DNA from: an uncultured Acidobacteriota bacterium
Lineage (GTDB): Bacteria; Acidobacteriota; Thermoanaerobaculia; Multivoradales; DATKCC01
DNA length: 64,000 bases
Direction of reading: 5' to 3'
NCBI GenBank assembly: GCA_963843755.1
Contig: CAWJLS010000002.1
Span: 193,279-257,278 of the forward strand
Shown: positions 22,789 to 42,886 of the stretch, piece after piece
How the letters are laid out: every line of letters starts with the position of its first letter
How positions within the stretch are numbered: position 1 is the stretch's first letter
Notes under the pieces: model-generated
Database searches by the model: none
Seen by the model: only the letters and a program-made list of their open reading frames with translations
Told to the model about the DNA's origin: nothing
Program-made: the position numbers and the translations under genes

Positions 22789-22820
22789 TCCAAAACGCCA
22801 ACAGAATCTGAGGGAGAACC

Positions 22821-24237: not shown

Positions 24238-24567
24238 CGGGTCACCTCCCCGGAACCGGCCGCCAGCTCGGAGAGAATCCTCCCCACCCGCGCCAACGTC
24301 TCATCCCCCACGGACAGCAGGAAATGAGCCAGCGCCAGCGGCCGCACCCGCAGCCCATCCAGCACCGTCAACACCTCTGGCAGATCCTCGTTCCAGCCGA
24401 GGACCGTGCCGACGTCGACATGTCCATTTCCCCATCCGGAGACCAGGAGGTACAGATCCTCCTCCGCATCCAGATCCTCCACCAGCGCGAACCGCGGAGC
24501 CCGGCCGGTCAAGGGCAACGCCGCCGCGGTCAGGTAGGCGAGATCGGGCTCGGCCAGGCACGCCCGC
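24120..24567. repeat. 448-bp direct repeat, copy 2 (inside the intact gene pair)
   Basis: See copy 1 at 20857..21304. Confidence 0.85.
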
Positions 24568-24821: not shown

Positions 24822-25116
24822 TGGCTGTGCTCCTTTGCGTCGGTTCAGGGCGCGGCAGAGGGTCACAGCTCTGTCGCGTCCGTTTGAGGGTTCATGTGTT
24901 TGCTGCGTCGTCCACGGCCTGTGCGGCCTTGCGTCGTGGTTGCCGGGCGCCTCCTCTCGGTGTCGCGAGTGGTGGGTTACTGTGTCTCGTTGCGCCTAGT
25001 TTACGCGTTTCTGTGTGGCGCCGTCAAGATTACGCTTAGTTGCGACGACGCCCGCTGGTGATTAGGGTATCGGGCTCCAAGGTGGCCGTTTCAGTCCAGA
25101 TCGAGAAGCACGACCG

Positions 25117-26475: not shown

Positions 26476-26715
26476 GCCTGATCACGATAGGCGGTGGTTC
26501 GGCGCCCCAATCTGATCAGATTGGGTGAGGGAGGGGGACAGTGGTCCCTTGAAGACCGTGATCAGGTCGTTGTTTGCTCGGCATCCTCCGCGCCCGGAGG
26601 GCGCGCGGGGTGGGAGGGGGCTGTGGATGGGGTGAAGGATGCCCCCCAGGGGGTTGACGTGCCCCCCGGAGGGCGTGTCTTCTTTCGGTGTCAAGCCAGA
26701 AAGGAGACCCCTTCC

Positions 26716-27300
26716 TTGTACCAGAGCCTGCTCGCCGACACCAGGTTTTTCTCGCTTCTTCTTCGCATCGACCGGGACCTGGCGCAGCAGGCCCATGCCG
26801 GCGGTTGCCCTTGGTGCGGCGGTGCACTGCACCGGGCGAGCTACCGGCGCAAGCCACGGGGCGGGGCGGGCCGGTTGGGCCCGGAGCACGCCGAGCGCTT
26901 CAGCTTCTGCTGCTCGGTGGAGGGGTGCCGGCGGCGGGTGACGCCGGCCTCGGTGCGGTTCCTCGGACGCAAGGTCTTCTTCGCCACTGTGGTGCTGCTG
27001 GTGCCGGTGCTGCGCGACGGTCCGAGTCCGGAGCGCCTCGGCCGGCTCGAGGAGCTTTTCGCGGTGGACCGCCGGACCTTGGGGCGCTGGCGGCTGTGGT
27101 GGCGCAGGGTCGTGCCGGCGACGCCCTTCTGGAGAGCGGCGCGCGGCCGGTTTCGCCGTCCGCTGGGGGAGGACGCCCTGCCAGGCAGCCTCTTGGCGGT
27201 GTTTCGGGGGGAGCGAGGGCTCGGGGCGCAGGTGCTCTCGGCCCTGGCATGGCTGGCGCCGCTGAGCGTGGGAACGGCGCTCGCCGGGAGCGCTTGGTGA
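26716..27300 (+). CDS. Transposon-encoded Cys-rich (zinc-finger-like) protein
   Basis: TTG 26716 lies 9 nt after AAGGAG, within ORF 26494..27300. Contains CPWCGG...FCCSVEGC. Confidence 0.55.
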   Translation: MYQSLLADTRFFSLLLRIDRDLAQQAHAGGCPWCGGALHRASYRRKPRGGAGRLGPEHAERFSFCCSVEGCRRRVTPASVRFLGRKVFFATVVLLVPVLRDGPSPERLGRLEELFAVDRRTLGRWRLWWRRVVPATPFWRAARGRFRRPLGEDALPGSLLAVFRGERGLGAQVLSALAWLAPLSVGTALAGSAW

Positions 27301-27405
27301 TGGGCGCGACGGACCCGCAGAAGATGCATCTCGACGGCGGCCGGGACGGCCCGTAGCGTCTCTTCGGCCGGCGAGCGACGGACGCCGCCGGGAAAGGAGA
27401 CGCAC

Positions 27406-28887
27406 ATGGGGAAGGATCGCCGCTCCGGCGGGCTCGGGCGCTGGGCCGAGCTTCGCTTCTCGATCATCGGGCCGCTCTTGGCCTCACCGCCGTCGCGCGG
27501 CGAGCTCGCCGCCGAGCTCGCCCGCCTGGCGGAAAGGGAATGGCTCCACCCGCAGAGCGGGGAGCCGGTGCGCTTCGGGGTCTCGACCCTGGAGCGCTGG
27601 TACTACACGGCCCGCAACGCGCCGGACCCGGTGGCGGTGCTCGCCCGGGAGCCGCGCAAGGACCGGGGCCGCCCACGGGCCGTCACGCCCGCCCTGGGCG
27701 CCGTGGTGCGCGAGCAATCGGGCGAGCATCCGAGCTGGAGCTACCAGCTCCATCGCGACAATCTGGCGGCGGTGCTCGCCGAGCGCCCGGAGCTGGGGCC
27801 ACTGCCCTCGTACTCGACCCTGCGCCGCTACCTCCTGGCCCAGGGCCTGATCCGCCAGCCCCGGCGGCCGGCCGGACGCCGGGGCGAGACCGAGCGCCGG
27901 GCCGGCGAGGCCCGCGAGCGGCGCGAGATGCGCAGCTTCGAGGCCGAGTACGTGAACGGGCTGTGGCACCTCGACTTCCACCACGGCTCGCGCAAGATCC
28001 CGACCCCGGCCGGCGAGTGGGTGCGGCCGCGGCTCCTCGCGGTGCTCGACGACCGCTCGCGCCTGGTCTGCCACGCCCAGTGGTACCTCGCCGAAACCGC
28101 CGAGACCCTGGTCCACGCCCTGACCCAGGCGATCTTGAAGCGCGGCCTGCCGCGGGCGCTGATGAGCGACAACGGCGGCCCGATGATCGCCGGCGAGACC
28201 CGCGAGGGCCTCGCCCGGCTGAGCATCCTCCACCACACGACGCTGCCGTACTGCCCGGCGCAAAACGGCAAGCAGGAGGTGCTGTGGGCCCAGGTCGAGG
28301 GCCGGCTCATGGCGATGCTCGAAGGCGAGCCCGACCTCTCGCTGGCGCGGCTCAACGAGGTCACCCAGGCGTGGGTGGAGATGGAGTACCAGCGCACGCG
28401 CCACTCCGAGACCGGCCAGACGCCGGTCGAACGCTGGCTCGCCGGCCCCGCGGTGCTGCGCCCGGCTCCCGACGTCGAGGAGCTCGCCCGGGCCTTCACC
28501 GTCCGCCAAGGGCGGGTCCCGAGGCGCAGCGACGGCACGGTGACCATCGCCAGCAAGCGCTTCGAGGTGCCGCAGCGCTTCGTCCACCTGCGCCGGCTCG
28601 AGCTGCGCTTCGCCTCCTGGGACCTGTCCCGGGTCTGGCTGATGGACGAGTCCGCCGGGGTCGTCCTCGCCCGCCTCTACCCGCTCGACCGTACCCGCAA
28701 CGCCGACCGGGTCCGACGGCCGGTCACCCCGCCCGACCCATCGAGCACGCCAGCGAGCCGACCGTCGAGCCAGGCTCCCGGCATCGCTCCGCTCCTGCAC
28801 CGCTACCTGGCCGACTACGCCGCCACCGGGCTGCCGCCCGCCTACCTGCCCCACCACTCTGACGACGACTCCGGAGACCCCGCATGA
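27406..28887 (+). CDS. DDE (rve) transposase/integrase, TniA/MuA-like
   Basis: WHLDFH (D), LMSDNGG (D) and PYCPAQNGKQE (E) form the DDE triad. N-terminal HTH region; Mu-transposase-like C-terminus. Confidence 0.85.
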   Translation: MGKDRRSGGLGRWAELRFSIIGPLLASPPSRGELAAELARLAEREWLHPQSGEPVRFGVSTLERWYYTARNAPDPVAVLAREPRKDRGRPRAVTPALGAVVREQSGEHPSWSYQLHRDNLAAVLAERPELGPLPSYSTLRRYLLAQGLIRQPRRPAGRRGETERRAGEARERREMRSFEAEYVNGLWHLDFHHGSRKIPTPAGEWVRPRLLAVLDDRSRLVCHAQWYLAETAETLVHALTQAILKRGLPRALMSDNGGPMIAGETREGLARLSILHHTTLPYCPAQNGKQEVLWAQVEGRLMAMLEGEPDLSLARLNEVTQAWVEMEYQRTRHSETGQTPVERWLAGPAVLRPAPDVEELARAFTVRQGRVPRRSDGTVTIASKRFEVPQRFVHLRRLELRFASWDLSRVWLMDESAGVVLARLYPLDRTRNADRVRRPVTPPDPSSTPASRPSSQAPGIAPLLHRYLADYAATGLPPAYLPHHSDDDSGDPA

Positions 28888-29729
28888 ACCCCCCGAAGCT
28901 GCTCGCCCTCTACGGCCTGAAGTGGAATCCCTTCCATCCCGACGTCCCGGTCGACGCCCTGTGGCGCCCGCCCGAGCTCGATCACTTCTGCTGGCGCATC
29001 GAAAACCTCGCCCGCGACGGCGGCTTCGCCCTCGTCACCGGCGAGCCGGGCACCGGCAAGTCGGTGGCTCTGCGCCTCGTGGCCCACCACCTCAAGACTC
29101 TCCCGGACCTCGCCCCGGCGGTCCTGACCCGGCCCCAGAGCGGCGTCGCCGACTTCTACCGCGAGCTCGGTCAGCTCTTCGGCGTGCCGCTCAAACCCCA
29201 CAACCGCTGGGCCGGCTTCCACGCCCTGCGCGAGACCTGGCTCGGCCACGTCGAGGCCACCCGTCTGCGTCCGGTGCTACTCGTCGACGAGGCCCAGGAG
29301 GTGCCCGCCGCCGTCCTGGCCGAGCTGCGCATCCTCGCCTCCACCGACTTCGACTCCCGCTCGCTGCTGACCACGGTCCTGTGCGGCGACCAACGCCTGA
29401 CCCAGCACTTTCGCCACCAGGACCTGCTCCCCGTGGCCAGCCGCATCCGCACCCGCCTCGAGCTCGGCTACCGCACCCCGAAGCAACTCGCCGACTGGCT
29501 GGCCCACACCCTCGCCCAGGCCGGCCAGCCCCACCTGATGACCGAGGAGCTCGTCGTCACCCTCACCGAGCACGCCGCCGGAAACCTCCGCATCCTCGCC
29601 AACCTGGCCCAGGAGATGCTCGCCACCGCCGCCCACCGCGACCTGACCCACCTCGACCAGAAGCTCTACCTCGAGCTCTTCACCCCGCCGACCCAAGCCC
29701 GGCCCCGAAGCGCCGGCGAGCGACCGTGA
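28884..29729 (+). CDS. AAA ATPase, TniB/ExeA-like transposition helper
   Basis: Walker A TGEPGTGKS and Walker B LLVDEAQ. ATGA overlap with the transposase. Confidence 0.85.
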   Translation: MNPPKLLALYGLKWNPFHPDVPVDALWRPPELDHFCWRIENLARDGGFALVTGEPGTGKSVALRLVAHHLKTLPDLAPAVLTRPQSGVADFYRELGQLFGVPLKPHNRWAGFHALRETWLGHVEATRLRPVLLVDEAQEVPAAVLAELRILASTDFDSRSLLTTVLCGDQRLTQHFRHQDLLPVASRIRTRLELGYRTPKQLADWLAHTLAQAGQPHLMTEELVVTLTEHAAGNLRILANLAQEMLATAAHRDLTHLDQKLYLELFTPPTQARPRSAGERP

Positions 29730-29736
29730 GCTCCCC

Positions 29737-30099
29737 ATGACCGCCTTCCCCGAGCGCCACGACTACATCCAGCGCCTCCTCGGCCTCTACCGCCGCACAC
29801 CCGAGACCACCGGCGTCGTGCGTCGCGCCGACCGCCGCCTGGCCGGCCAGCTCTACGACCGACGCGTCCCCCTCGAGCTGCTCGACGTCGCCCTGCGCCT
29901 CACCATCGCCCGCCGCCAGCTCCGGCCTCCCGACGCCCCGCCCCTGACCACCATCCGCTCGCTCCACTACTTCCTCCCCGTCCTCGACGAGCTCGCCGAC
30001 CCCACGATCGATCCCGACTACCTCGACTACCTCCGCCATCGGCTCACGCCAACTCAGCGCTCCTCGCCCGACCGCATCCCTTCCCATCGACGACCGTGA
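29737..30099 (+). CDS. Transposon-encoded hypothetical protein
   Basis: 120-aa ORF directly after the ATPase, ending about 30 bp from the right IR. Confidence 0.45.
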   Translation: MTAFPERHDYIQRLLGLYRRTPETTGVVRRADRRLAGQLYDRRVPLELLDVALRLTIARRQLRPPDAPPLTTIRSLHYFLPVLDELADPTIDPDYLDYLRHRLTPTQRSSPDRIPSHRRP

Positions 30100-30137
30100 A
30101 CACAGTGCCATCGATTAGCTTGATCACTCTCACGGCG

Positions 30138-30980
30138 CACGACCTGGCGCTGATTCATCTTGATCTTGGGAACCTAACAACTGCCGAATCGTTCTTCGAG
30201 CAGAGCATCGGCCTGAGCAGTCGCGCCGGCGATCTGCGACATGTCGGCTGGTCCCACTTCCAGCTCGGAATCCTGAGTTATGAGCGCGGTGATTTTCCGG
30301 TGGCCGAGGCCCGTTTCCGAGAGTCCGAGAGAATCGCTTCAACGGTAGGCGACGTAAATCATCTGGCCTTCGTCGATCACGAGTTAGGTCTTCTTCTTTT
30401 TCTGCAAGGTAAACTGAAGGCGGCAGCCAAGCGGTTTCTCTCTGCGCTGAGGACGGACCGACACACAGGCAGCGAGGCGTTCTCCGGCATGGACTACCAA
30501 CACTTGGGGGTTGCCCTTCTCGAAGTCGGGCGATGGCGATGCGCGGAGCGCTTCCTCTCTCGCGCCCAGGAGATTTATGAACGCACGGGCGACCGCGAGA
30601 CTCTTTCCGAACTCCGTAGCTACTTCGCACAGCTCTACCTCCTCCAAGGACGACTTGACGACGCCACCGACGCGGCGACCCGCGCGGTCGAGGAAGCGTC
30701 ACAGCATGGCCTTCCACAGTTTCGACGAAGGGCGGCTTTCGTTCGCTCCCTCTGTCGGGTTGTGGCGGGGCGGGCTCGATCGGAATCCCTGCTCGGAGAA
30801 ATCGACGACGCTGTCCGGGCGGAGCAGCTCCCGCTGATACTCGACGAGGTCTACCTCACATTCAAGAAGGGGTGGGGCAGCGTGTTGCTGAGGGAACGCC
30901 CCGAATTGGTCTCGCGCGTCCGCGGGATCTTCAAGAACCTTGGGAATACGCGCCGTTTGGCTAGAATCTCCCCTTCGTGA
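30138..30980 (+). pseudogene. SIR2-TPR protein, C-terminal TPR part (displaced by the transposon)
   Basis: The frame of ORF 30096..30980 from HDLALIHLDLGN onward joins in-frame to ...DEAGDAA at 26472 once the element and one TSD copy are removed. TPR-like repeats (GDLRHVGWSHFQLGILSYERGDFPVAEARF...). Confidence 0.75.
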
Positions 30981-31303
30981 CAGTTGTCAGGCTATGCGGA
31001 CCAGGCCTGTTGACCCAAGGTGGGTTGTGCTTCGGGTGCACGGGTGGATGGCGTCAGTTGTCTTTCGCGAACGAAACAACCAGCCTGGCGTTGTCCAACC
31101 GGAACTCCAATCTCGCGAAGAGAAGGAGCCTAACCCATCTTCTACAGTCGCCGAGCCCTCCAAACGCGTAAGTCGTTTATTTCTGTAACTTGATCTGGCG
31201 GATTTTGGGGAAATCCCTGAATCCTGGTGCCAACTTTTTCCGGGATGCCTGTTGACGGGCAATGGATAGGGCGCTATTGTCTAGGTGTCAACCGGAGGCG
31301 CCA

Positions 31304-32947
31304 ATGTTCTTCCGACAGAAGACGGTCAAGGGCTACACCTACCTCCAGATCGTCGAGAACCGCTGGGAGAAAGGCCGAAGCCGTCAGCGGGTGCTCGCCA
31401 CCCTGGGCCGGCTCGACCAGCTCCGCGAAGAAGGGCGTCTGGAGGTTCTCCTCGAGTCTGGTGCTCGCTTTGCCGAGTCGATGCTGGTGCTCTCGGAAGT
31501 CCGCCGGGGCGAGCTCGCCACGAGTGCCTCTCGACGGATCGGCCCACCGAAGGTCTTCGAGCGGCTCTGGCACGAGACGGGCTGTGCCGAGGTGATCCGG
31601 AAGCTCCTCGCCGAGCGCGCCTTCGAGTTTCCCGTCGAGCGGGCGATCTTCCTCGAGGTGCTCCACCGCCTGGTGGCTCCCGGCTCCGACCGCGGCGGTG
31701 TCGAGTGGCGCCGGGCCTACGGGATCGACGGCGTCGAGGGCCTGGAGCTCCACCACGCCTACCGGGCCATGGCCTGGCTGGGCGAGCCGCTGGCCGAGGA
31801 GACCCCCGCCGGAGCGCTCGCTCCCCGCTGCACCAAAGACCGCATCGAGGAGGCCCTCTTCGCGCGGGACCAGGATCTCTTCTCCTCGCTCCAACTCGTC
31901 TTCTTCGACACGACCTCGATCTACTTCGAGGGTGAGGGTGGCCAGAGCCTCGGCCAGCACGGTCACAGCAAGGATCATCGGCCGGACCTGAAGCAAATGG
32001 TCGTGGGGATGGTCCTCGACCAGGAGGGTCGGCCGATCTCGTGCGAGCTGTGGCCCGGCAACACGAGCGACGTGACGACGCTCGTGCCGGTGGCCAAGCG
32101 GCTCCGGACGCGCTTCGGCATCGGCCGCGTTTGCTTGATCGCCGACCGGGGGATGATCCAGGCCAAGACTCTCCAAGCCCTGGAGGCCGAGGGCTGGGAC
32201 TACATCGTCGGTGCCCGGATGCGGAGCCAGAAGGAAGTGCGTGACGAGGTCCTCGGCCGAGGCGGGCGCTTCCGCCAAGTCGTGGGACCGCGCAAGAGAG
32301 CCAAGGACCCCTCGCCACTCGAAGTCAAGGAGGTGTGGGTCGACGAGCGGCGCTACATCGTCTGCCGCAACGAGGAGCAGGCGAGGAAGGACGCCGCCGA
32401 CCGGGAGGCGATCCTCGCCGCCCTCGAGAACAAGCTCCACGGCGGCGCGACATCGCTGGTCGGCAACCGCGGCTTCCGGCGCTACCTCTCGGCGAAGGGG
32501 AAGGGCTTCCAGATCGATCCGGGCAAGATCGAGCGCGACCGGCGCTACGACGGCAAGTGGGTGCTGCGCACCACCACCGACCTCGATGCGGCCGACGTCG
32601 CCTGGGCCTACAAGCAGCTCTGGACGGTCGAGGAGATCTTCCGCACCATGAAATCGTTGCTCGAGACCCGCCCGATCTGGCACCGCCTCGACGAGACGAT
32701 CCGCGGCCACGTCTTCTGCTCGTTTCTGGCCCTGCGGCTGCGCTTCGAGCTCGAGAGCCGCCTCGCCGAGCGCGGTGAGAGCTTCGAATGGGCCTCCGTC
32801 CTCCGCGACCTCGACCAGGTCGAGGAGATCGAGGTGGAGAAGAAGGGCACCCGCTTCGTCCTACGCTCCGAGGCCCCGGGCTCGGCCGGCAAGGCCTTCC
32901 AGGCTGCCGGCGTCGCCCTGCCTCCCACGGTTCGGAAGGTGAGCTGA
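31304..32947 (+). CDS. IS1634-family (IS4-like DDE) transposase
   Basis: ATG 31304 after GGAGG. MFFRQKTVKGYTYLQIVENRWEKGRSRQRVLATLGRLDQL N-terminus. DDE context FFDTTSIYFEG, LIADRGM. The element's ends were not resolved. Confidence 0.85.
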   Translation: MFFRQKTVKGYTYLQIVENRWEKGRSRQRVLATLGRLDQLREEGRLEVLLESGARFAESMLVLSEVRRGELATSASRRIGPPKVFERLWHETGCAEVIRKLLAERAFEFPVERAIFLEVLHRLVAPGSDRGGVEWRRAYGIDGVEGLELHHAYRAMAWLGEPLAEETPAGALAPRCTKDRIEEALFARDQDLFSSLQLVFFDTTSIYFEGEGGQSLGQHGHSKDHRPDLKQMVVGMVLDQEGRPISCELWPGNTSDVTTLVPVAKRLRTRFGIGRVCLIADRGMIQAKTLQALEAEGWDYIVGARMRSQKEVRDEVLGRGGRFRQVVGPRKRAKDPSPLEVKEVWVDERRYIVCRNEEQARKDAADREAILAALENKLHGGATSLVGNRGFRRYLSAKGKGFQIDPGKIERDRRYDGKWVLRTTTDLDAADVAWAYKQLWTVEEIFRTMKSLLETRPIWHRLDETIRGHVFCSFLALRLRFELESRLAERGESFEWASVLRDLDQVEEIEVEKKGTRFVLRSEAPGSAGKAFQAAGVALPPTVRKVS

Positions 32948-33233
32948 GCGAGGCTGACCGGCCGCAAACCTCGATTTCATGGTGCCAACGCCGAATTGCG
33001 CCTGCGTAAGTGGCGCAAGGTCAGTGAGTTACGATTGGGCACTGTAGAAGATGGGCTTGAGGGTGCCCTGGGGAGACACGGTGGCTGCGAGTGGACCGCG
33101 TCAGGCCAGATCGTGAGGTCAACCCTGGAACCCCAAGGGGTCCTTGTATGGCATGTACGCGAAACCTGTATCGAGAACCTCGCACCAAGCCCGGCTTGGC
33201 CGTTGGATCTTGCGGACCACAGCTTCCCCGTGC

Positions 33234-35285
33234 TCAGTACGCTAGGTCGTCAAAGAGGGTGGCGTGGCCGTCGTTGATGGGGGGGAGGACGACACGGGCC
33301 CCGTGACGGATGGGTTGGACAAGGGTGTGCTGCTGGACCCGCGCCAAGACTTCGTCAGATTCGATGCGCTTCCGGAGCCAGCGCTCTGTCCACCAGAGGG
33401 TGATCTCCTCGGTGGTACGTTCTGGCTCACTCATGTCAAAGAGATACTCTGGCTCAGTATCCATCCCGAGGAGAAACTCACGCAGATTCCTGACGAGCGG
33501 CACGCCGTAGACGATGCGCTGCCTTCCATGCTGGAGTAGGGCGTCGGCTGGCAGATTGAGCGCGTCGAGACCGGCTCGGACTTTACGGAGTTTCGGGCTT
33601 ACGCCCTCACCGAATATGCTGTTGACCCTCTGGCCGTTGCTGGATTGCTGGACCAGGGAGACGAGAGCGTCGACTGTGTCCGAGCTGAATTGCGAGGTAC
33701 CATAGGCTTCGGACTTACCAAGCTCGCGGAAAGCGATCCGCTCACCCTCGGCGCCATCAATGCGGTCGGCCGGAATGTGCAGCCTGTTGTATTGACTAGA
33801 TCCGACTCCGTAGAGTGAGGTCGTCCCGAGAAATACCAACTCTGAGGGTCGAACAATAGGCTTACCCGCTATCGAAGACGCGATTTCGCTCTCCTGCTCA
33901 GCGTACTTCTTTCGATAGGCGGCGACCATTTGCGGGCTCACAGCCAACATAGAGACGAGTTTCCCACCGAGGATCGGGTTGTATGGAGCGACCGCACCGC
34001 AGACGGTGATATCGGCCATTGCGATCCCAACTCGGTCCGCCTTGGCTTTTCGGAGCACCTTCTTCACGATACGCTGTCCGTCTGCGGTCCCCAGCAGCGT
34101 GCGCACCTCATCTCGGGTTGGCGGCGAGGATAAGTACTCCTGGAGAACCATCCGCGAACGGAGCATGTCGGCCAGAGAGAGTGCGCGCTTGCTGCGATAG
34201 AGATGTGCTCGGGCGCGCATTCGCCAGTGAGCTTCGGTGCTGCCGGTTTGGTCGCGTTTCGCCGAGTGCTTCAAGTCTTGCGATCTAGCGAGCCGGTGGT
34301 GGAGTTCCCGCTGCTGCTCTCCGTGTTTGATGAGACGTTGAAGCGCTGCGAGCGTCGGAGCACGGAGTTCGGCTGGAGAGAGCAGTTCTTCCTCGAAGAA
34401 ATCGTCGAGATGAATCTCCCCGATTGCTGTCTCCACCGTCTTGCGGAGCCAACTTCCGAGCTCTGCAGACGGTGCCTCGCTCACAAGTTCCATGAACGCT
34501 TCGGGGTGCCATCCAATCCAAGCGTCCCGTTCTCGGATCTGAACGATTGGGCTCCCTAGAGACCCGATCCCAATCACGGGGTGGTACTCGCGAGCTCGAT
34601 CGCGGACAAGGAATGCCATCGAGCGTCCAGGTGTATTCGTGTATTGGTTCGTCCATGTATGACGAAAATACCGCCAAATGTCTTGGGTGCGGAGCCCGGT
34701 GTATTCGCAATACTCAACTTCATCTACGAACTGGATGTACGGGTTGATCACCGCCCTTAGTGCGCGGATGCGCCTATCTCCAGTTAGCGACCTCGCAGCG
34801 CGGAGCGACTCAGCAAGTTCGCGCCCGTCCCGGATTATTGAGTAGATCGAAACGAAGTGTCCATTGTGGACGGACCTCTTCTCCATCCCCTTGATGAACC
34901 TCCTCGTCGCGGCCTCTCGGAGCTGTTCATCGCGCTTGACAAGCTCCTGGGCTTTGATGCGCGCCTTCTCGCGCCCTGGGTCGAGCTGATCCCCTTCCGG
35001 GCGCTTTACCTCGACATCGCCGGCCTTGGTGACTTGGATCGACCAGCGCTGGCGAGCGAGGTCAGTCAGCACGCACAGCGCTGCGCGCAAAGCGGTCGCG
35101 CAGGCGTCAGGGCTACCGAGGCGCAATGATTCATTGAGCGCCTCGTCGAAGTTCTCACCGTCATCATTGTTGGTCAGCAACGCGGATAGCCGCGTGGCGT
35201 GGTTGCGGAAAGCCTGCTTTGCCGCGCTGCGCTCCGAGAACGGTGGAGAGAGCACAACCCAGTTGTTGTGTGCTTGACGGCCCAT
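33234..35285 (-). CDS. DruA-like DUF4338 domain protein (683 aa)
   Basis: GRSMAFLVRD...VIGIGSLGSPIVQIRERDAWIGW, ITVCGAVAPYNPILGGKLVSML and LGTTSLYGVGSSQYNRL resemble the DUF4338 core. Its start lies 3 nt after the upstream stop. Confidence 0.65.
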   Translation of the reverse strand: MGRQAHNNWVVLSPPFSERSAAKQAFRNHATRLSALLTNNDDGENFDEALNESLRLGSPDACATALRAALCVLTDLARQRWSIQVTKAGDVEVKRPEGDQLDPGREKARIKAQELVKRDEQLREAATRRFIKGMEKRSVHNGHFVSIYSIIRDGRELAESLRAARSLTGDRRIRALRAVINPYIQFVDEVEYCEYTGLRTQDIWRYFRHTWTNQYTNTPGRSMAFLVRDRAREYHPVIGIGSLGSPIVQIRERDAWIGWHPEAFMELVSEAPSAELGSWLRKTVETAIGEIHLDDFFEEELLSPAELRAPTLAALQRLIKHGEQQRELHHRLARSQDLKHSAKRDQTGSTEAHWRMRARAHLYRSKRALSLADMLRSRMVLQEYLSSPPTRDEVRTLLGTADGQRIVKKVLRKAKADRVGIAMADITVCGAVAPYNPILGGKLVSMLAVSPQMVAAYRKKYAEQESEIASSIAGKPIVRPSELVFLGTTSLYGVGSSQYNRLHIPADRIDGAEGERIAFRELGKSEAYGTSQFSSDTVDALVSLVQQSSNGQRVNSIFGEGVSPKLRKVRAGLDALNLPADALLQHGRQRIVYGVPLVRNLREFLLGMDTEPEYLFDMSEPERTTEEITLWWTERWLRKRIESDEVLARVQQHTLVQPIRHGARVVLPPINDGHATLFDDLAY

Positions 35286-35288
35286 TGA

Positions 35289-36848
35289 TCATCCGTTTAG
35301 GAAAGTAGCGAGCGTGTCGCTCCACCCGGCCCGCAGTTGCTCCGCGACCTCAAGCGTCTCCGTTCCCTCGAGCAGTGCCTCGGTACGCGCCGCCGCAAGC
35401 AGCAGTAGGTCGATCTGCGACCGCACCGTCTCGTCCCTGGGGTTCTCGGACTCGAGTAGTGGCTTGTACACAAGCTTGTAGAACGGGTGATCTGGGTTGA
35501 GGACGAGGACTAGCCGTCCCTTGTCTCGCGCATAGTTGAAAAAAGAGGTCTCGCTCAATGCGGTTGGGACGATCCGATACTCGGTCAAGGTGTCGTTGTC
35601 ACTCCCTGAACGCGCTGTTGGGGGCAGCGTCTTTCCCAGTGCTCCGAGGATCCTCTTGTCGCGCAACCGCGGCTTCGGCGGCAGGGGAGCCAGCGTGTCG
35701 TCCTTCTCGCTCGCGCGGTTCTCAGACGAAGTGAATCGCTCCGCGATCTTCGCGTTGAGGTGAGCCTTCCTTGCGCGGCTGTTGAGTGCACGCGCTGTCG
35801 CCTCCATGTCGGCGCTCAGCGCCTCTACAAGGTGGGGGCGTGGCCGGATCTGTTGCTTGGTGTGCGTGATCCCAAACGCCTCGTCCAGGATCGGATCGAA
35901 CATGATCTCGCAGCGCCACCAGTCGTCATAGTTCTCCCGCCGCTTCCCTCCGAGGAAGAACCAGCCGTAGTCCACTTCGCGACCACAACGGACGACAGAA
36001 ACACCAGCGCCTTTGGCGATCCCACGGGCCCGCTTCTCTTTGTTGCTGAGCTTCGACCACTCGGCGACAGGCAACTCCGAGAACCGCACCTTGACGAACC
36101 CTGTCTTACTCAGGTCTTCGGGGTCGGTAGCAATCTCGTAGACCAACTCCTCCGCGAACTGGCTCGCACCGCTGTAGAGTGCGTCTGGGTGGAGAAAGAG
36201 GGGGTCGATGGGCTGGACTGCGTCACCGTTCACTGTGATAGTCGTCCCGCCCCACAAGAAGTGGCGGAATCGCCTTCCAAGAGCCACTAAGAGCTTCCGT
36301 GTAATGGTCGAGATGCGGCGGTTGTCCAGCCTGTCGCAACGACTCCAGGTCACCGCGGTGCCCGATCCGTATCCGTTGACGAACTCCGGCCTCCTGACCC
36401 GGCTCGGTTTGGGGACCTCGGTCAGTTTGCCGGACACGATCTCCTCGAGGTCGAGGTAGGAGGTGAGTACCTGGCCGCGTCCTGTGGTCCAGGTATGCAC
36501 CGTCACCCGCTGGGCCTGGCTCAATGAGCTGTTGGGTAGGCCCATGCCATAACGCCCAAGGCCTCTTCGATCGTCGAAGCGAGTACTGCCGCCGAATCGG
36601 AGCGCGGTCCGCAAGGTTCGAGAGTCCATACCAGAGCCGTTGTCGATGACGGTGAGGATGAGCGGATGTTGATCCTCGTCCTCGTCCACCATGACCGACA
36701 CTGCGATCGACGTAGCGCCCGCCTGTAGGGAGTTGTCGACAAGTTCGGCGACAGCGCTCGCCGTGCCCTTGTACCCTGAGTCGCGCGTAGCCTGGATGAA
36801 CCTGTCGACCGCGACAATCGAGAAGTCCTGATCCCCGGATGCGTTCAT
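35289..36848 (-). CDS. GHKL (Bergerat-fold, MORC/HATPase_c_3-like) ATPase, paralog 1
   Basis: N-box AELVDNSLQAGA, G1 box IDNGSGM, G2 box GRYGMGLP. Shared paralog motifs FGITHTKQQI and NPDHPFYKLVY. Confidence 0.8.
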   Translation of the reverse strand: MNASGDQDFSIVAVDRFIQATRDSGYKGTASAVAELVDNSLQAGATSIAVSVMVDEDEDQHPLILTVIDNGSGMDSRTLRTALRFGGSTRFDDRRGLGRYGMGLPNSSLSQAQRVTVHTWTTGRGQVLTSYLDLEEIVSGKLTEVPKPSRVRRPEFVNGYGSGTAVTWSRCDRLDNRRISTITRKLLVALGRRFRHFLWGGTTITVNGDAVQPIDPLFLHPDALYSGASQFAEELVYEIATDPEDLSKTGFVKVRFSELPVAEWSKLSNKEKRARGIAKGAGVSVVRCGREVDYGWFFLGGKRRENYDDWWRCEIMFDPILDEAFGITHTKQQIRPRPHLVEALSADMEATARALNSRARKAHLNAKIAERFTSSENRASEKDDTLAPLPPKPRLRDKRILGALGKTLPPTARSGSDNDTLTEYRIVPTALSETSFFNYARDKGRLVLVLNPDHPFYKLVYKPLLESENPRDETVRSQIDLLLLAAARTEALLEGTETLEVAEQLRAGWSDTLATFLNG

Positions 36849-37642
36849 TCGCCTGACTCCGTAGCTTCCTCGTTCGCCTTGCCCATCACCTTGACCTCCA
36901 CTCGCTCCATCACCATGGACTGGCCGAGGTCAAGCTGCTCGACGTGCTTGACTACGGTATCCCACTTGGTCGGGCGGTGATCTCCACGCGCGCGATCTCC
37001 TCTCGTACTAACCTCTCGTAGGCTCTCACCGTGTCCACGACCTCCTGATCGCCGGGGTGCTCCATCCTCGTCGTCCGACAGCGAGGTAACCCGCTCAACC
37101 CGGAGAGCGAGAGTGTGGAGGAGGGTCGGCGGCGCTTCAGGCTCGGCTGCTTCTGGCAGGCGGCCGACCGCGTCCGGTTTTGTCCCCAGGTGGTGGTTCG
37201 GGAACATCGCCGACCGCCCCTCCGGCTCGAGATGCCTGGCGAGTTCCACGTGTCGGCCATGGTCGTGGAGAGGGTAGTCGGGATTCTTCGGCTTGTTCTT
37301 CGGGCGGTACGATCTGCGTAACGCCACGGCCGACGGCGGCCCAGAGCCTAAGGCTCCGGACTCGGCAGAAGAGACCGCTTCGGCTTCGGACGCGCGCCGC
37401 ATGACCAGGGAGAGCCTACCCAAGGACAGGGCAGAGAAGATACTCCCCGACAAATCGAGCGGCTCGGCCCGTGACACTGGAGAAAGTGGTGGGTTCCCCC
37501 GCGCTTTGCCAGACGAAGCCAGCGGCGCCAGAGGCGAGGCTACGCCTGAGCCCGGGGTGGCGTCGGCGAGCGAACTGGAAGGGCTGGTTCGAAGAGGTGG
37601 GCTGCCTGTGGGGCGGCTGCTAGACTTCTCGTGGTTCTGCAC
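36845..37642 (-). CDS. Hypothetical protein (S/P-rich N-terminus), first gene of the GHKL-DUF4338 operon
   Basis: GTG 37642 lies 10 nt after AAGGAGG. ATGA overlap with the GHKL start. No recognisable domain. Confidence 0.5.
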   Translation of the reverse strand: MQNHEKSSSRPTGSPPLRTSPSSSLADATPGSGVASPLAPLASSGKARGNPPLSPVSRAEPLDLSGSIFSALSLGRLSLVMRRASEAEAVSSAESGALGSGPPSAVALRRSYRPKNKPKNPDYPLHDHGRHVELARHLEPEGRSAMFPNHHLGTKPDAVGRLPEAAEPEAPPTLLHTLALRVERVTSLSDDEDGAPRRSGGRGHGESLREVSTRGDRARGDHRPTKWDTVVKHVEQLDLGQSMVMERVEVKVMGKANEEATESGE

Positions 37643-38192
37643 GGAGCTATATCCTCCTTGCGGGATCGGGCCCGGGTGAGTTGCAGCTCGCCCGGGCCGC
37701 TTCTGGGATGGCCCTGGAGGTTAGACCCTAGGGCCAGCGTCTCAAAGAATAACGCTCTGATACCGCCATTCTAGGGCCTCGGAACGCAGAAGTCAAGCAG
37801 TTCGCGAATCTGGTCGCCTCCACGGCGTGTGCTCGGCGCCTTCCCCTCCAACCGTTTGGGGCGTTCGCCGTAGTCCCAACTCCGAAGCGGAGCCTCCGCT
37901 GACCGCTGCCTCAGAGCCCTTCCCTCCGGAGCTAGGATGCCTCGGAATGCGTGTCTACTTGGAGCCGAGAGTCCGACGACCCTCGCAAGAAGTCACCGCC
38001 GGGCGAGGCGAGGGGGTTATCGGATGTCGATGCGGTTGTGTGTATACTCCTGAACGGCAGGCGAGGTCCTCGCCCTAACCAGGCTCCGAAAAATGGGGCC
38101 TATAGGCAAAGGTCGAAGATCGTGCCACGGGAGAGCCTCTTCTGCTGCAACTGACGGACGAGCCGTCAGGATTGACAGAAGAGAGGCTCTCA

Positions 38193-38759
38193 ATGAAGAC
38201 GACGCAACCTGTTCTGTGCGCAACGTCGTCGGCGCACATCTCCCCCTCTAAATCCCGCCCCAACACGGAGGACGGAACCCTTGAGCGCTGGAACGACGAC
38301 ATCGTCCAGGCCTCCCGCGCGTGTGCTCGCAAACGTGGGCTGCAAGCCGACCACCCCTTTGCTGATGACGTCGCCCAAGAGGTGCGCTTGGCGCTCGTAC
38401 TCGCCATCCGAAAGACAGGTATCAAGGACGAGCGGTACCTCCGGCGCGTAATCAGCAACAGTGCGAAGAATTCAACGCGACAGACGCTGGTCGTCACTCG
38501 GGAGGTCTCTGACGACTCCATTGAGGAACTCCCGCAGGAGCAGCCAGCGGTGCGCGACGTCCTCGCCGAGCGCCGTACCCGAGAGTGGCTTCACGACTTG
38601 CCGAGACAGCTCAAGGCAGTGTTCCACTTGCTGTATCGAAGAGGCCTGAGTCAGCGTGAGGCTGCCGTGTGCCTCGGGGTGAGCCAGCCTCGCGTAGCGA
38701 AGCTCCACCGACAGTTGCTCAGGTGCGGTGCAGATGGGCTGCGCGACCTGGCAGCCTGA
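38193..38759 (+). CDS. Sigma-70/ECF-like small sigma factor or HTH regulator
   Basis: Region-2-like DDVAQEVRLALVLAIRK. Region-4 HTH LPRQLKAVFHLLYRRGLSQREAAVCLGVSQPRVAKLHRQ. Confidence 0.6.
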   Translation: MKTTQPVLCATSSAHISPSKSRPNTEDGTLERWNDDIVQASRACARKRGLQADHPFADDVAQEVRLALVLAIRKTGIKDERYLRRVISNSAKNSTRQTLVVTREVSDDSIEELPQEQPAVRDVLAERRTREWLHDLPRQLKAVFHLLYRRGLSQREAAVCLGVSQPRVAKLHRQLLRCGADGLRDLAA

Positions 38760-38865
38760 TTCGACCACGCCGCACGGACCGGTGGGCCACGCTCGTGCGA
38801 TTTCAACTCGGCCCGATCTGGCGGCTCCCAAAAACGGGGCTGTCGCAATAGCAAGGAGAAGAACT

Positions 38866-40707
38866 ATGACACAGCAGAAGATGACTACAGAGACCACGGA
38901 GCGGCAGCGCAAGTACGTGAACGAACAGAAGGCCAAGGGGCACGGCCTCGGAGTCGTGTTCGCAGATGCATTCCTTCGGGGGATGCGCGACATCGGGTAC
39001 AAGGACCCCGCCTGGGCCCTCGCCGAGCAGATCGACAACGCCGTTCAGGCGGCCGCCAAGACGATTTCGCTCCGTTTCAGCTTCGACAAGAAGAACAAGA
39101 GTCAAGCCAAGCCCGACCAACTCGCGCTGGTCGACGACGGCAACGGCATGATCCCCGAAATGCTCGGCTACGCCGTTCGCTGGGGTGGGACGGATCGCGA
39201 GGGCGATCGGCAAGGATTTGGTCGCTATGGGTACGGGCTGCCGAGTTCTGCCGTCAGCATTGCCAAGCGGTACACGGTGTACTCGAAGACCTCCGAGTCG
39301 CCATGGCACTCGGTGACCGTCGACATCGACGAACTCGCATCGGCTGCCAGCGACATCAAGCGCACTGAGGAACTCCTTTCCGCTACGCCGGCGAAACTGC
39401 CGAAGTGGCTTGTCGAGGCTGAAGATCAGATCGATCTGGCGAAACTCGAGTCCGGGACGGTAGTCGTACTGGAGGACCTCGACCGCTTGCGGGCGACCAG
39501 TGGATGGAAGAAGGCCGACACGATCAAGACAAAGCTTCTTCAGCATTTCGGTGTGATCTACCGGCATTGGTTGGGGGAGCGGCGGATTTTCGTCCACGGG
39601 ATCCGCACTCTGCCCGTCGACCCGCTTTTCCTAATGGAGCATGGGCGGTTTTTCGACGAGACCTCCATTCGAGCTATTGGTGTCCAGACCCGGACGTTCG
39701 AGATGGAGACCTCCCGGAAAACAAAGGGGACGGTTACCATTCGTGCCGCGCTGCTACCACCGAACTTCCAGTTGAAGACGCCGCCGGGACGCCTCAACTC
39801 GAATGGCGATATTGCCGGCCCGACTAACGACCGATTCAAGATCATGAAGGAGTTCAACGGGCTCCTTATTTGCCGGGAGCGCCGGCAGATCGACTGCGTC
39901 TCTCCGCGCTGGACGAAGTTCCAGAACTACGACGCGCACGTGAAGGTCGAGGTCGATTTCGACCCCGAACTGGACGAGTTCTTCGGCATTACTACTGCCA
40001 AGCAGCAGATTGTGATCGCGGATGAAATGTGGGAGAAACTGCAGCACAGCGGTCGCGGAGGTGGTGGACTAAAGGACTTGGTCAGGGACCTGCGTAAGCG
40101 GCTGGATGAACTGCGTGACGAACTCAAGGCGAAGCTCAAGTCCACCGAGGGAAAGGACGAGCCTCGCCCTAGCGCCATCGCGATGACTGAGACTGAGAAG
40201 TTCAAGGTCTCGACGACCGAGCCGACGCGGGAGCATCGTGAGGAGGCGGAGCGCAACCTCGACCGCGAAGCGAAGGAGCGCGCCGAGGCCACTGGAAAGC
40301 GCCACGAGGAGGTCGTGGAGGAACTCCGTCAAGAGATCTCCAAGCGCCGCTGGGAAGTGGAATTCGCGGCGATCCCGGAGGGACCTTTCTACTCGCCAAA
40401 GCGCCTCGGTGAGCAGAAGCGCATCGTCCTCAACACGGATCACCCCTTCTACTCGAAGGTCTATGAAATCGCGCCGGACGTGAGCGCCGCACTCGAGGTC
40501 TTGCTGTTTGTTCTCGCAGAGCGAGAGCTTGAGTCCTTTGGGGACGCGGAGATCTTCTACAAGGCCGAACGGCAGCGCTGGTCCGAGCGGCTACGCTATG
40601 CCCTCGACGTGCTCACGACAGACGAGGACCTCGCTGACCGTGCAGCGGCGATAGCGGAAGCCATGTACCTGAATGATGAAGCGACCCCGCCACCATCGAT
40701 CGAGTAA
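38866..40707 (+). CDS. GHKL (MORC/HATPase_c_3-like) ATPase, paralog 2, with charged coiled-coil insert
   Basis: ATG 38866 after AAGGAGA. AEQIDNAVQAAA, VDDGNGM and GRYGYGLP. FGITTAKQQI and NTDHPFYSKVY match paralog 1. Confidence 0.8.
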   Translation: MTQQKMTTETTERQRKYVNEQKAKGHGLGVVFADAFLRGMRDIGYKDPAWALAEQIDNAVQAAAKTISLRFSFDKKNKSQAKPDQLALVDDGNGMIPEMLGYAVRWGGTDREGDRQGFGRYGYGLPSSAVSIAKRYTVYSKTSESPWHSVTVDIDELASAASDIKRTEELLSATPAKLPKWLVEAEDQIDLAKLESGTVVVLEDLDRLRATSGWKKADTIKTKLLQHFGVIYRHWLGERRIFVHGIRTLPVDPLFLMEHGRFFDETSIRAIGVQTRTFEMETSRKTKGTVTIRAALLPPNFQLKTPPGRLNSNGDIAGPTNDRFKIMKEFNGLLICRERRQIDCVSPRWTKFQNYDAHVKVEVDFDPELDEFFGITTAKQQIVIADEMWEKLQHSGRGGGGLKDLVRDLRKRLDELRDELKAKLKSTEGKDEPRPSAIAMTETEKFKVSTTEPTREHREEAERNLDREAKERAEATGKRHEEVVEELRQEISKRRWEVEFAAIPEGPFYSPKRLGEQKRIVLNTDHPFYSKVYEIAPDVSAALEVLLFVLAERELESFGDAEIFYKAERQRWSERLRYALDVLTTDEDLADRAAAIAEAMYLNDEATPPPSIE

Positions 40708-41023: not shown

Positions 41024-41105
41024 GGGGCCACTCTAGCGCAAACACGGTGCGCTGCCCGGGCGGCGTGCCAGGCGATTGGAGCTGCCCCCGGCGGATCACG
41101 GCCTG

Positions 41106-42668
41106 CTAGGAGTCTGCGCGGCAGGAACCGGCGTGGGTAGAATGCCCCATGTCCACGACGTTCAGGCCGTACGAGCCGGACCAGAGCCTGCTTCTGCCAC
41201 CGTCTCCTCGGGACTGGCTTCCTGAGGAGCATCTGGCGTACTTCATCTCGGACACGATTGAGGCGCTGGACCTGAGCGGGTTCTTCGCGCGCTACGAGGG
41301 GGACGGTCGTCGCAATCGTCCCTACCATCCGGAGATGATGGTGAAGATTCTGGTCTACGCCTATTCGACCGGGGTGTTCTCCTCGCGCAAGATCGCCAAG
41401 AAGCTCGAGGAGGACGTGGCGTTCCGGGTGCTCGGGGCGGGCAACTTTCCGGCGCACCGCACGATCTGCGACTTCCGGCACGACCACCTGGAGGAGTTCG
41501 GCAAGCTGTTCGTCCAGGTGGTGCGGGTGGCCCGCGAGTCGGGGATGGTGAAGCTGGGCACCGTGGGGGTGGACGGCTCGAAGGTCAAGGCCAACGCCAG
41601 CCGCCACAAGGCGATGAGCTACAAGAGGATGAAGCAGGAGGACAAGCGCCTTCGGCGCGAGATCGACGAGCTCTTGGGTCAGGCCGAAGACCAGGACGCC
41701 GAGGAGGATCGCCTCTACGGTCCGGACCGGCGGGGCGACGAGCTTCCGGAAGAGCTGCGGCGGCGCGAGGATCGGCTCAAGACGATCCAGGCCGCCAAGA
41801 AGCGCCTGGAGCAGCGCCAAGCTGAGGAGGACCGCAAGAAGGGGCGTCACGAGGGGGACGAGCGCAAGAGCCCTCGGGGTGGACCCCGCTTCGCCCGGGA
41901 CTTCGGGGTGCCCGAGGACAAGGCCCAGGACAACTTCACCGATCCAGAGAGCCGGATCATGAAGACCTCCCGAGGCTTCGAGCAGTGCTACAACCCGCAG
42001 ATCGCCGTCGACGACGAGCACCAGATCATCGTCGCGACCACCTTCACCAACAGTGCGAACGACATGAGGCAGCTCGAGCCCCTGGTCGACGCGATCGACC
42101 GGGTGACGGACCAACGGCCCAAGCGGCTGCTCGCGGACGCCGGCTATTGCTCGGAGGAGAACTTGAGCCGCCTGGAGAAGCATGGGATCGATGCCTACGT
42201 CTCGCTCGGCCGCGAAGGAAAGGAGGCGCCCGAGAAGGACCTCTCGGGCAAGCCCGCCACCGCACGGATGCGCGAGAAGCTGGCCACCGAGCAAGGCAGA
42301 CGGCGCTACGCCAGGCGTAAGGCGATCCCGGAGCCGGTCTTCGGCTGGATCAAGAATGTCCTCGGCTTCCGGCAATTCAGTCTCCGGGGAGAGCGTAAGG
42401 CGGGCGGTGAATGGGATCTGGTCTGCCTCGCCACCAACCTGCGGCGCATGAGGAACCTCGCGAGGGCGGCCGGATGAGCCAACTCGGTCCAGCTCGCGGG
42501 CTCGGGCTCCTGCCAGGCGGCTGCGTCGCCTTCGCCGAGGTCCCGCTCACCGGACATCCGGTCGGCCCAACACCGGACCCGGCCTCGATTCGACGGCTCG
42601 GCCACCCGGCGAGGCGCGGGAACCACCGATTGCCGGGTCTACGCGCGTCCTGCCGCGCAGACTCCTAG
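41106..42668 (+). mobile_element. IS1182-family insertion sequence
   Basis: Perfect 21-bp terminal inverted repeats CTAGGAGTCTGCGCGGCAGGA (41106-41126) and TCCTGCCGCGCAGACTCCTAG (42648-42668) flank the transposase gene. Confidence 0.85.
41149..42477 (+). CDS. IS1182-family transposase
   Basis: MSTTFRPYEPDQSLLLPPSPRDWLPEEHLAYFISD...YHPEMMVKILVYAYSTGVFSSRKIA N-terminus. Charged coiled-coil middle. DDE C-terminus (LLADAGY). Confidence 0.9.
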   Translation: MSTTFRPYEPDQSLLLPPSPRDWLPEEHLAYFISDTIEALDLSGFFARYEGDGRRNRPYHPEMMVKILVYAYSTGVFSSRKIAKKLEEDVAFRVLGAGNFPAHRTICDFRHDHLEEFGKLFVQVVRVARESGMVKLGTVGVDGSKVKANASRHKAMSYKRMKQEDKRLRREIDELLGQAEDQDAEEDRLYGPDRRGDELPEELRRREDRLKTIQAAKKRLEQRQAEEDRKKGRHEGDERKSPRGGPRFARDFGVPEDKAQDNFTDPESRIMKTSRGFEQCYNPQIAVDDEHQIIVATTFTNSANDMRQLEPLVDAIDRVTDQRPKRLLADAGYCSEENLSRLEKHGIDAYVSLGREGKEAPEKDLSGKPATARMREKLATEQGRRRYARRKAIPEPVFGWIKNVLGFRQFSLRGERKAGGEWDLVCLATNLRRMRNLARAAG

Positions 42669-42886
42669 CTCGGCGCCGCCACCAGTCGAGGATCTGGTCC
42701 TCGCCGATGGGGCGGTCGTCGGCGGGGATGCGGAGGCTTTCGCGGACCGCTCCCCAGGTTCCGCGGTCGACGGTCATCGCCACCGCGAAGGTGATCACCA
42801 TGGCCAGGAGCGCGCCGAGGCCGGCGACGCCCATGTCCTTCTGGGCGTCCCAGACGTCTCCCTGGGCGCCGAGGAAGGCGAGGCCG
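42669..42886 (-). pseudogene. DUF2238-like membrane protein C-terminal fragment (copy A)
   Basis: AFLGAQGDVWDAQKDMGVAGLGALLAMVITFAVAMTVDRGTWGAVRESLRIPADDRPIGEDQILDWWRRR is nearly identical to 43686..43920. The reading frame runs into the IS. Confidence 0.5.

Follow-up and report, generated by a model that had tools for sequence, protein, structure and literature searches.

A coupled MORC-like ATPase–DruA gene pair in an acidobacterial genome, probably the head of a widespread type I Druantia variant

The 64-kb stretch of DNA analysed here (hereafter the window), taken from contig CAWJLS010000002.1 of an uncultured Acidobacteriota bacterium, encodes on its minus strand a MORC-like ATPase of the GHKL class, followed directly by a long form of DruA, a DUF4338 protein of type I Druantia. 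Comparison with homologous loci indicates that these two translationally coupled genes probably constitute a conserved head module, found in a widespread type I Druantia variant and in related islands, and that the window holds this head only. At homologous loci the head is followed by sets of helicase and nuclease genes, here called engines: usually DruD and DruE, elsewhere SNF2/NERD/YprA or DndFGH-like genes. A GHKL-containing type I Druantia subtype, with a head that is also coupled to these other engines, is new in so far as we found none described.

A preliminary description of the region had presented it as a three-gene operon, with a 265-aa protein encoded ahead of the ATPase, and as a candidate undescribed defence system. 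The claim of novelty holds in part. No paper treating Druantia together with GHKL or MORC proteins was found in the searchable literature, which covers few subscription journals, but the long DruA is already included in the type I model of PADLOC. The three-gene operon is not upheld (see below).

Conservation of the GHKL–DruA pair

Homologous loci were collected from both sides of the pair. A survey with the DruA alignment, keeping one genome per species, gave 80 loci at 40–79% identity. They come from Alpha-, Beta- and Gammaproteobacteria, Myxococcota, Acidobacteriota, Actinomycetota, Chloroflexota, Spirochaetota and Gemmatimonadota (at least seven phyla). A GHKL orthologue, 36–86% identical, lies directly upstream of DruA at all 75 genome loci with enough upstream DNA; three apparent exceptions are artefacts of open reading frame (ORF) calling, and tblastn places a GHKL gene directly upstream in these as well. 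A survey of metagenome contigs with the GHKL alignment gave another 80 loci; at every one of the 69 long enough to include it, DruA is directly downstream. GHKL and druA are mostly spaced by +3 or −4 nt, and the identities of GHKL and DruA to the window copies co-vary across 139 loci (Pearson r = 0.89). The pairing is real, strict and ancient, and the two genes are functionally linked. The neighbourhood survey proposed in the preliminary description has thus found the pair conserved (75/75 and 69/69), but not the 265-aa gene.

The pair is scarce in viral sequences (four loci among 2.9 million contigs), and the plasmid search returned only distant DruA homologues (at most 36% identity). No GHKL gene is detectable by BLAST in the two plasmid DruA loci examined, one from Hymenobacter (L088) and one from Haloplanus (L089). 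Their DruA homologues (about 33% identity, 705–1052 aa) stand beside giant proteins of the FtsK/SpoIIIE type (FtsK/HerA-type), and the haloarchaeal locus also encodes a divergent DruE-like helicase. These neighbours, together with the lack of a BLAST-detectable GHKL gene, therefore point to further DUF4338 partner sets in archaea and Bacteroidota.

Properties of the two proteins

The ATPase matches Pfam HATPase_c_3 at 6.3e-23 and contains all the Bergerat-fold boxes previously reported for it: ELVDNS (N-box, with E35 and N39), DNGSGM (G1, D69xGxG) and GRYGMGLP (G2, from G98). The core residues of these motifs are at least 95% conserved in 78 orthologues, in which a downstream block, ENYDDWWRCE...TKQ, is likewise conserved. 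In phmmer searches of the PDB the top matches are MORC2/3/4 at 5e-6, followed by MutL. A Foldseek search with the AlphaFold2 model (pLDDT, the model's own confidence score, 79) retrieves the GHKL+S5 ATPase modules of MORC3 and MORC2 (2.5e-11 to 1e-10, about 410 columns); Hsp90, ParE and MutL rank lower. As proposed earlier, the protein is a MORC-like GHKL ATPase, more precisely of the GHKL+S5 type, and its nearest relatives are the MORCs.

The downstream protein had been recognized as DruA-like, which profile searches bear out. It matches Pfam DruA (PF14236, DUF4338) at 4.7e-31, the match being split over two stretches, and its residues 12–670 fit positions 15–666 of the 675 in the PADLOC model of type I DruA (PDLC00001) at 5.3e-202. 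There are more than 3700 homologues, and the top 120 are nearly all about 683 aa long and 62–87% identical. When the protein is compared by BLASTP with the 410-aa short DruA of Nitrosococcus watsonii pNWAT01, only residues 93–260 and 421–637 align. The long form differs from the short one by an extension of about 90 residues at the N-terminus and by a helical insertion of some 160 aa (approximately residues 261–420) within the DUF4338 domain. Once the insertion is removed in silico, DruA fits the Pfam profile in one stretch.

One paper (PMC10853773) describes DUF4338 as a GNAT-like domain that is sometimes fused to DndF and interprets it, in such fusions, as a secondary effector with proteins as its targets. 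In the window DruA, a conserved PYNxxLGGKL motif following a strand (residues 423–431) is compatible with the acetyl-CoA-binding β4–α3 loop motif. A Foldseek search of the PDB with the full model (pLDDT 76) gave weak MYST/Esa1/MOF matches alone (probability about 0.2, E > 5), none of them significant. Sub-constructs of DruA matched no acetyltransferase family in Pfam even at E = 10, and the DruA alignment profile found no relative among PDB sequences. Neither protein shows a toxin-like or a nuclease domain in scans with Pfam, PADLOC and NCBIfam. We found no paper assigning a mechanism to DruA.

Partner engines at homologous loci

Neighbouring ORFs were clustered, and cluster representatives were scanned with Pfam and PADLOC; a locus is called complete here when each of its flanks extends for at least 9 kb (n = 49). 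The GHKL–DruA pair lies beside a restriction-like module at 47 of the 49. The most frequent arrangement (25/49) comprises DruD (cluster C4, about 365 aa; PADLOC DruD1, 3.5e-120) and DruE (C3, about 1850 aa; DruE1, 1969 bits, with DEAD, Helicase_C and MZB/DUF1998 domains). A protein of about 960–1000 aa with no match in any library (C2) is found with an SNF2 helicase (C6, about 1000–1060 aa, DpdE/BrxHII/DrmD-like) at 13/49 loci, usually together with a convergent NERD-UvrD helicase (C8, about 580 aa); where the flank is long enough, these loci also encode a YprA-like helicase of about 2050 aa with a YjiV_N domain. Another DruE/YprA arrangement is present at 5/49 loci, and a DndFGH/SspFGH-like triad (SspF-, SspG- and DndH-like proteins; C16, C18 and C17, of about 560, 500 and 1600 aa, respectively) at 4/49. 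The view that the pair belongs to a stand-alone system lacking DruE is contradicted by these 47 loci, linked as they are to DruD/DruE, to SNF2/NERD/YprA or to DndFGH-like genes.

The complete layout begins with the gene of a small helix–turn–helix (HTH) regulator, followed by GHKL, DruA and the engine. C2, DruD and DruE usually make up the engine, which may also include a PD-(D/E)xK nuclease (C5, about 400 aa, Cas4/DruK-like). In its place there may be C2 and SNF2 with the NERD-UvrD and 2050-aa YprA-like helicases, or the DndFGH/SspFGH-like genes. A search of the PDB with the C2 profile, and Pfam and PADLOC scans of the C2 proteins of L030, L007 and N. watsonii, gave no match.

In the closest homologues (L002, L003, L006–L008, L010, L092 and many contigs), the genes form an island of about 20 kb with the order HTH_17-GHKL-DruA-(C9)-C2-SNF2 and, in convergent orientation, the 2050-aa YprA-like helicase, the NERD-UvrD helicase and a 336-aa protein. 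Strikingly many of the metagenome contigs carrying this island are 20–24 kb long, as though it were a discrete assembly unit. An assignment of the SNF2/YprA loci to ARMADA (Bell et al. 2025) was considered and rejected: the protein of about 1000 aa has no methyltransferase domain, and its N-terminus is homologous to the Druantia-like C2. At several loci (L006, L042, L092) the unit comes directly after a gene for a large serine recombinase and a DUF2924 gene. In other clades (L028–L038, L081/L082) the pair is located at the edge of integrative conjugative elements (ICEs) recognizable by Plasmid_RAQPRD, DUF2976, a TraG/TrwB-like coupling protein and a Replic_Relax relaxase.

The leader and the 265-aa frame

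In relatives of the window locus, a 72–89-aa gene of the HTH_17 family lies ahead of GHKL, its stop codon overlapping the GHKL start (ATGA); it is intact in L002–L008, L092 and others. The nucleotide homology between the window and L007 extends as far as window position 37048. The HTH_17 region of the window is, however, disrupted by indels (an insertion of +1 and a deletion of −2) and by an in-frame TAG, and the ancestral frame is kept only in the last 19 or so codons, which hold the GGAG Shine–Dalgarno sequence of the GHKL gene.

The 265-aa frame runs over this relic. The ORF coordinates and signals given for the region in the preliminary description are correct: AAGGAGG is located 9 nt ahead of the GTG at 37642, the stop of the frame and the ATG of the GHKL gene overlap as ATGA at 36845–36848, and a gap of 3 nt (35286–35288) separates GHKL from druA. 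The frame matches no family in Pfam, PADLOC or NCBIfam, and its only homologue besides itself among 5.8 billion proteins is P0123 (164 aa). Over the first 110 codons the two share 59% amino acid and 77% nucleotide identity, with a ratio of non-synonymous to synonymous substitution rates (dN/dS) of 0.93, and the tail of the frame has a dN/dS of 0.75. The same comparison, between the window and L090, gives 0.14 for a second GHKL gene and 0.32 for a sigma-like gene. The L090 region homologous to the frame also carries a deletion of about 305 nt. Because a frameshifted HTH_17 relic lies beneath it, because it has a single homologue and because of the dN/dS of 0.93, the 265-aa frame is not a real gene; on the sequence evidence it is an artefact running over the HTH relic partly in another frame.

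The locus is therefore not a three-gene operon: it is a two-gene module behind a long leader, and the 265-aa stretch is best read as part of this leader of about 900 nt. The number of promoter-like sites is no higher than expected from shuffled sequences, and the site listed in table 1 is a lead only. No Rfam family was found in the leader (30–43 kb scanned).

State of the window copy

No DruD, DruE, C2, SNF2, NERD-helicase or DndFGH-like gene was found by tblastn in the 64 kb of the window. The DruE/YprA queries were 39 proteins of the DruE cluster and nine of the YprA N-terminal cluster, all from related loci; the majority of homologous loci encode DruE. No helicase domain is present among ten large ORFs scanned outside the island, the term island denoting here the stretch of about 8 kb between two insertion sequence (IS) elements. 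None of the five island proteins (the three initially reported, the second GHKL and the sigma-like protein) matches the DruB or DruC models. The earlier statement that the window contains neither DruB-E nor a helicase gene agrees with these scans.

An IS1634-like element has its right end 178 bp beyond the druA stop, at the place occupied in relatives by C9/C2/DruD/DruE or SNF2 genes, and a 100%-identical Logan contig breaks at window position 33032. An IS1182-like element bounds the opposite side of the 8-kb segment, which holds the leader, GHKL and DruA together with the divergent sigma-like and second GHKL genes. Overall, the window copy resembles a Druantia-like head that stayed behind when the other genes were lost in association with an IS element, rather than a newly evolved three-gene system. 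The complete form is found in L092, L007 and L008, which are relatives at about 81% identity. The nearest relative is a pair of Logan contigs, L090 and its continuation L091 (sample SRR31012009), with a DruA 87% identical to that of the window, the same gene arrangement and the same HTH-relic tail. L091 ends 240 bp past druA, and these 240 bp match nothing.

The divergence between the window and L091 (dS 0.36–0.60 for GHKL and DruA) is accompanied by a dN/dS of 0.10 for GHKL and 0.12 for DruA (0.10–0.12 overall for the latter). At columns at least 95% conserved, the two window proteins have 0 and 4 changes, compared with medians of 2.5 and 3, so that there is no excess. Since this purifying selection is seen in a lineage that carries the HTH relic, GHKL and DruA have been kept under selection after the loss of the regulator.

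Adjacent genes and genomic context

The features of the locus and its surroundings are reported in table 1. The sigma-like gene and the second GHKL gene are transcribed divergently from the GHKL–DruA pair, an arrangement conserved in L090. Homologues of the sigma-like gene adjoin the pair in L035, L042 and L090. The second GHKL protein shares 28% identity with the 519-aa GHKL over its full length, and its true start is probably further downstream than that of the ORF. A second GHKL gene adjoins the pair at 10 of 79 genome loci and 24 of 80 metagenome loci; often the two GHKL genes are in tandem, with the short one directly downstream (L070, L081, L084, L151). A C-terminal NP(D/E)HPFY motif is common to both paralogues, which has raised the idea that they might form a MutLα-like heterodimer.

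The segment has a GC content of 59–65%, compared with about 70% in the surroundings, and the host looks like a bacterium of high GC content. Its placement in lower-GC DNA between IS1634 and IS1182 elements, near SIR2 and protease genes, is confirmed. The low-GC region to the left is an IS-rich island holding other candidate defence genes.

Table 1. Features of the window. Strand and basis are given where available.
Feature	Position	Strand	Basis or remark
Long-form DruA (DUF4338), 683 aa	33234..35285	−	ORF list, Pfam, PADLOC
MORC-like GHKL+S5 ATPase, 519 aa	35289..36848	−	ORF list, Pfam, phmmer, Foldseek
265-aa open frame ('gene 1'), GTG start	36845..37642	−	over leader and HTH relic; not a conserved protein-coding gene
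Decayed HTH_17 (AlpA/excisionase-type) gene	36845..37065	−	alignment to intact HTH_17 genes of L007, L002, L006
Promoter-like site TTGACT-17-TAGAAT (10/12)	37768..37796	−	about 125 nt upstream of GTG 37642
Extracytoplasmic function (ECF) sigma-like/HTH protein, 195 aa	38172..38759	+	TIGR02937 sigma70-ECF, 3.4e-12; Pfam Sigma70_r4
Second, longer MORC-like GHKL paralogue, 659-aa ORF	38728..40707	+	ORF list, Pfam
IS1634-like element	31134..33055	+	DDE_Tnp_1 transposase 31262–32947; perfect 15-bp terminal inverted repeats
IS1182-like element	41105..42669	+	DUF772, DDE_Tnp_1 and DDE_Tnp_1_6; perfect 22-bp terminal inverted repeats
Low-GC region left of island	21322..30980		unassigned 488-aa ORF and other genes; IS-rich
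Trypsin_2 protease	22821..23783		in the low-GC region
SIR2_2-TPR protein	25117..26475		in the low-GC region
IS21-like pair, rve integrase	27406..28887		left of island
IS21-like pair, AAA_22	28884..29729		left of island
TPR protein	30096..30980		left of island
Ser/Thr kinase-TPR protein	9537..12191	+	high-GC flank
Radical-SAM/B12 genes	51.9–58.1 kb		
tRNA-Leu(GAG)	55719..55807		
DUF11/DUF7507/SdrD_B repeat surface protein, 1946 aa	58035..63875	−	high-GC flank

Proposed function and alternative explanations

MORC, MutL and other GHKL ATPases are ATP-dependent dimers that clamp or loop DNA. The GHKL protein of the pair may likewise form an ATP-driven dimer that would clamp or loop DNA as MORC and MutL do. 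DruA would dock on it through the clade-specific N-terminal extension and helical insertion, which we infer to be the obvious candidates for the contact surface; that GHKL goes with the long form of DruA is indicated by N. watsonii, as its short-DruA cassette has no GHKL gene. The pair could act as a detector or marker of invading DNA, or of a protein on that DNA, that licenses a helicase/nuclease of the DruE type, the engines being interchangeable. DruE-type YprA helicases have been described as the engines of Druantia, in a survey of the YprA family that does not mention a GHKL partner (10.1101/2025.09.15.676423). In the window copy, which has no engine, the canonical restriction route would be closed. 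Selection on the pair has been maintained though the engine is absent, which suggests a partner elsewhere in the genome, a role of the adjacent sigma-like and second GHKL genes, or recent orphaning.

Several points weigh against the interpretation of the pair as a Druantia head. The mechanism outlined above is one that we infer throughout, and the GNAT assignment of DruA is a statement of the literature (PMC10853773) that neither Foldseek nor Pfam confirms here. Equivalence to the canonical DruABCDE is incomplete, as C2 does not match the PADLOC models of DruB and DruC. DruD and DruE may be encoded in trans, beyond the 64-kb window. Moreover, the window is not unique as a stand-alone locus, since two of the 49 complete loci (L035, L056) have no partner engine within 10 kb.

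Both of these partner-less loci carry a second GHKL gene, and the closest relative of the window keeps the second GHKL and sigma-like genes in divergent orientation to leader-GHKL-DruA. These arrangements would suit an autonomous system, in which GHKL and DruA, perhaps with the sigma-like gene and the second GHKL, suffice by themselves as a module for defence or abortive infection. The ATPase would sense foreign DNA and activate DruA as a GNAT-type effector acetylating a host or phage target, and the helicase/nuclease sets would be optional. Such a system would also account for the strong purifying selection on both genes in a lineage already without the HTH gene, and for a pair whose structure is constant while its partners swap among three unrelated engines; it accords with the reading, by the Aravind group, of DUF4338/GNAT domains fused to DndF as secondary effectors on proteins (PMC10853773). 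We nevertheless judge it quite unlikely. A partner engine is located within 10 kb at 47 of the 49 complete loci, the lack of partners in the window goes together exactly with the insertion of an IS at the junction, and neither protein has a toxin-like or nuclease domain. In L035, the GHKL gene beside DruA is split into two ORFs (291 and 303 aa, at about 8.4–10.0 kb), which suggests decay once the pair is orphaned, or else an assembly error in this metagenome-assembled genome. A related and bolder proposal, which we regard as doubtful, is that GHKL and long DruA form a portable, self-contained sensor/effector cassette, a prokaryotic MORC-type DNA clamp joined with a GNAT-like enzyme, which works with at least three unrelated engines and is able to persist and act alone or, as in the window, with a second GHKL that may heterodimerize. 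If true, this would provide a first mechanistic role for DruA and a sixth component of Druantia, neither of which we found described.

The loss of the engine, the pseudogenization of the HTH regulator and the presence of IS elements on both sides of the low-GC segment of about 8 kb, in IS-rich surroundings with further IS21-like genes, might instead indicate a recently stranded, functionless fragment of a Druantia-like island heading towards decay. This is unlikely given the preservation of the pair: its 3.6 kb of frame is intact and free of indels, compared with two indels and a stop in the adjacent HTH relic of about 220 bp, dN/dS is about 0.1 even relative to the nearest relative, conserved sites show no surplus of substitutions, and the catalytic GHKL motifs are all intact. 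A role of the HTH_17-GHKL-DruA unit in the integration, excision or maintenance of its carrier element, rather than in defence, might be read from the excisionase-type fold of HTH_17, from the loci in which the unit directly follows the serine recombinase and DUF2924 genes, and from those beside ICE genes (RAQPRD, DUF2976, TraG-like coupling protein, relaxase). Such contexts are, however, in the minority, whereas association with an engine is near-universal, and defence cargo typically sits at the ends of such elements; a housekeeping role is very improbable.

The interpretation of the pair as the head of a type I Druantia variant has consequences for a system of which DruA is the signature protein. 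A large, multi-phylum DruA clade is always preceded by a MORC-like ATPase. The constancy of GHKL, the clade-specific extension and insertion of DruA and the existence of three different engines lead to a testable hypothesis, namely that GHKL–DruA is a sensing or licensing head and that the helicases are interchangeable engines. For the annotation of defence systems, this Druantia subtype should include the GHKL gene, and an isolated DruA match like that of the window should be interpreted as an orphan head rather than a new system.

Comparison with known systems

Type I Druantia was reportedly described by Doron and colleagues in 2018 as the set DruABCDE. The window DruA fits model PDLC00001 over its full length, and matches to DruD1 and DruE1 are linked to the pair at 25 of the 49 complete loci. 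The canonical system differs from the variant in having no GHKL ATPase. In the variant, DruA is long, with its N-terminal extension of about 90 aa and its insertion of about 160 aa, one protein of about 960 aa replaces DruB and DruC, and there is often an additional PD-(D/E)xK nuclease. With none of DruB-E, the window locus does not qualify as a complete system.

A four-gene cassette of N. watsonii pNWAT01, similar to type I Druantia, has the order short DruA-C2-DruD-DruE, and its DruA matches PADLOC model PDLC00002 at 2e-217. Its C2, DruD and DruE are 34%, 40% and 56% identical to their counterparts in L030, and the DUF4338 core motifs are common to both forms of DruA. In contrast to the variant, the cassette has no GHKL gene, and its DruA (410 aa) lacks the extension and the insertion.

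DndFGH/SspFGH systems in which DUF4338 is fused to DndF have been reported (PMC10853773), and the pair adjoins SspF, SspG and DndH-like genes at 4 of the 49 complete loci. Here, however, DruA is a separate protein preceded by GHKL, and none of the module is present in the window. The MZA system was considered because MzaB is the best NCBIfam and PADLOC match of the N-terminal 200 or so residues of GHKL, a protein that has no other match among the PADLOC models. The assignment was rejected, as the score is 77.8 bits, far below the NCBIfam equivalog cut-off of 850, and there are no other Mza genes.

Prokaryotic MORCs were predicted (Iyer, Abhiman & Aravind 2008, PMC2292703) to act in restriction-like systems alongside superfamily II (SFII) helicases and nucleases. 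That study mentions no DUF4338/GNAT partner, and the helicase motif DThhQXuRhFG which it describes does not occur in any of the DruE, SNF2, NERD-helicase and DndH-like clusters; owing to this absence, the present loci were not equated with its 'type 3' MORC operons. No methyltransferase was seen at homologous GHKL–DruA loci. The likeness lies in the GHKL+S5 architecture, with MORC2/3/4 as best matches, and in the link to SFII helicases (DruE/YprA, SNF2) and nucleases of the restriction endonuclease fold in relatives. An operonic SFII helicase/nuclease is lacking in the window and present at 47 of the 49 complete loci. The results on the pair, its DruA form and its three engines connect Druantia with the prokaryotic MORC systems predicted in 2008.

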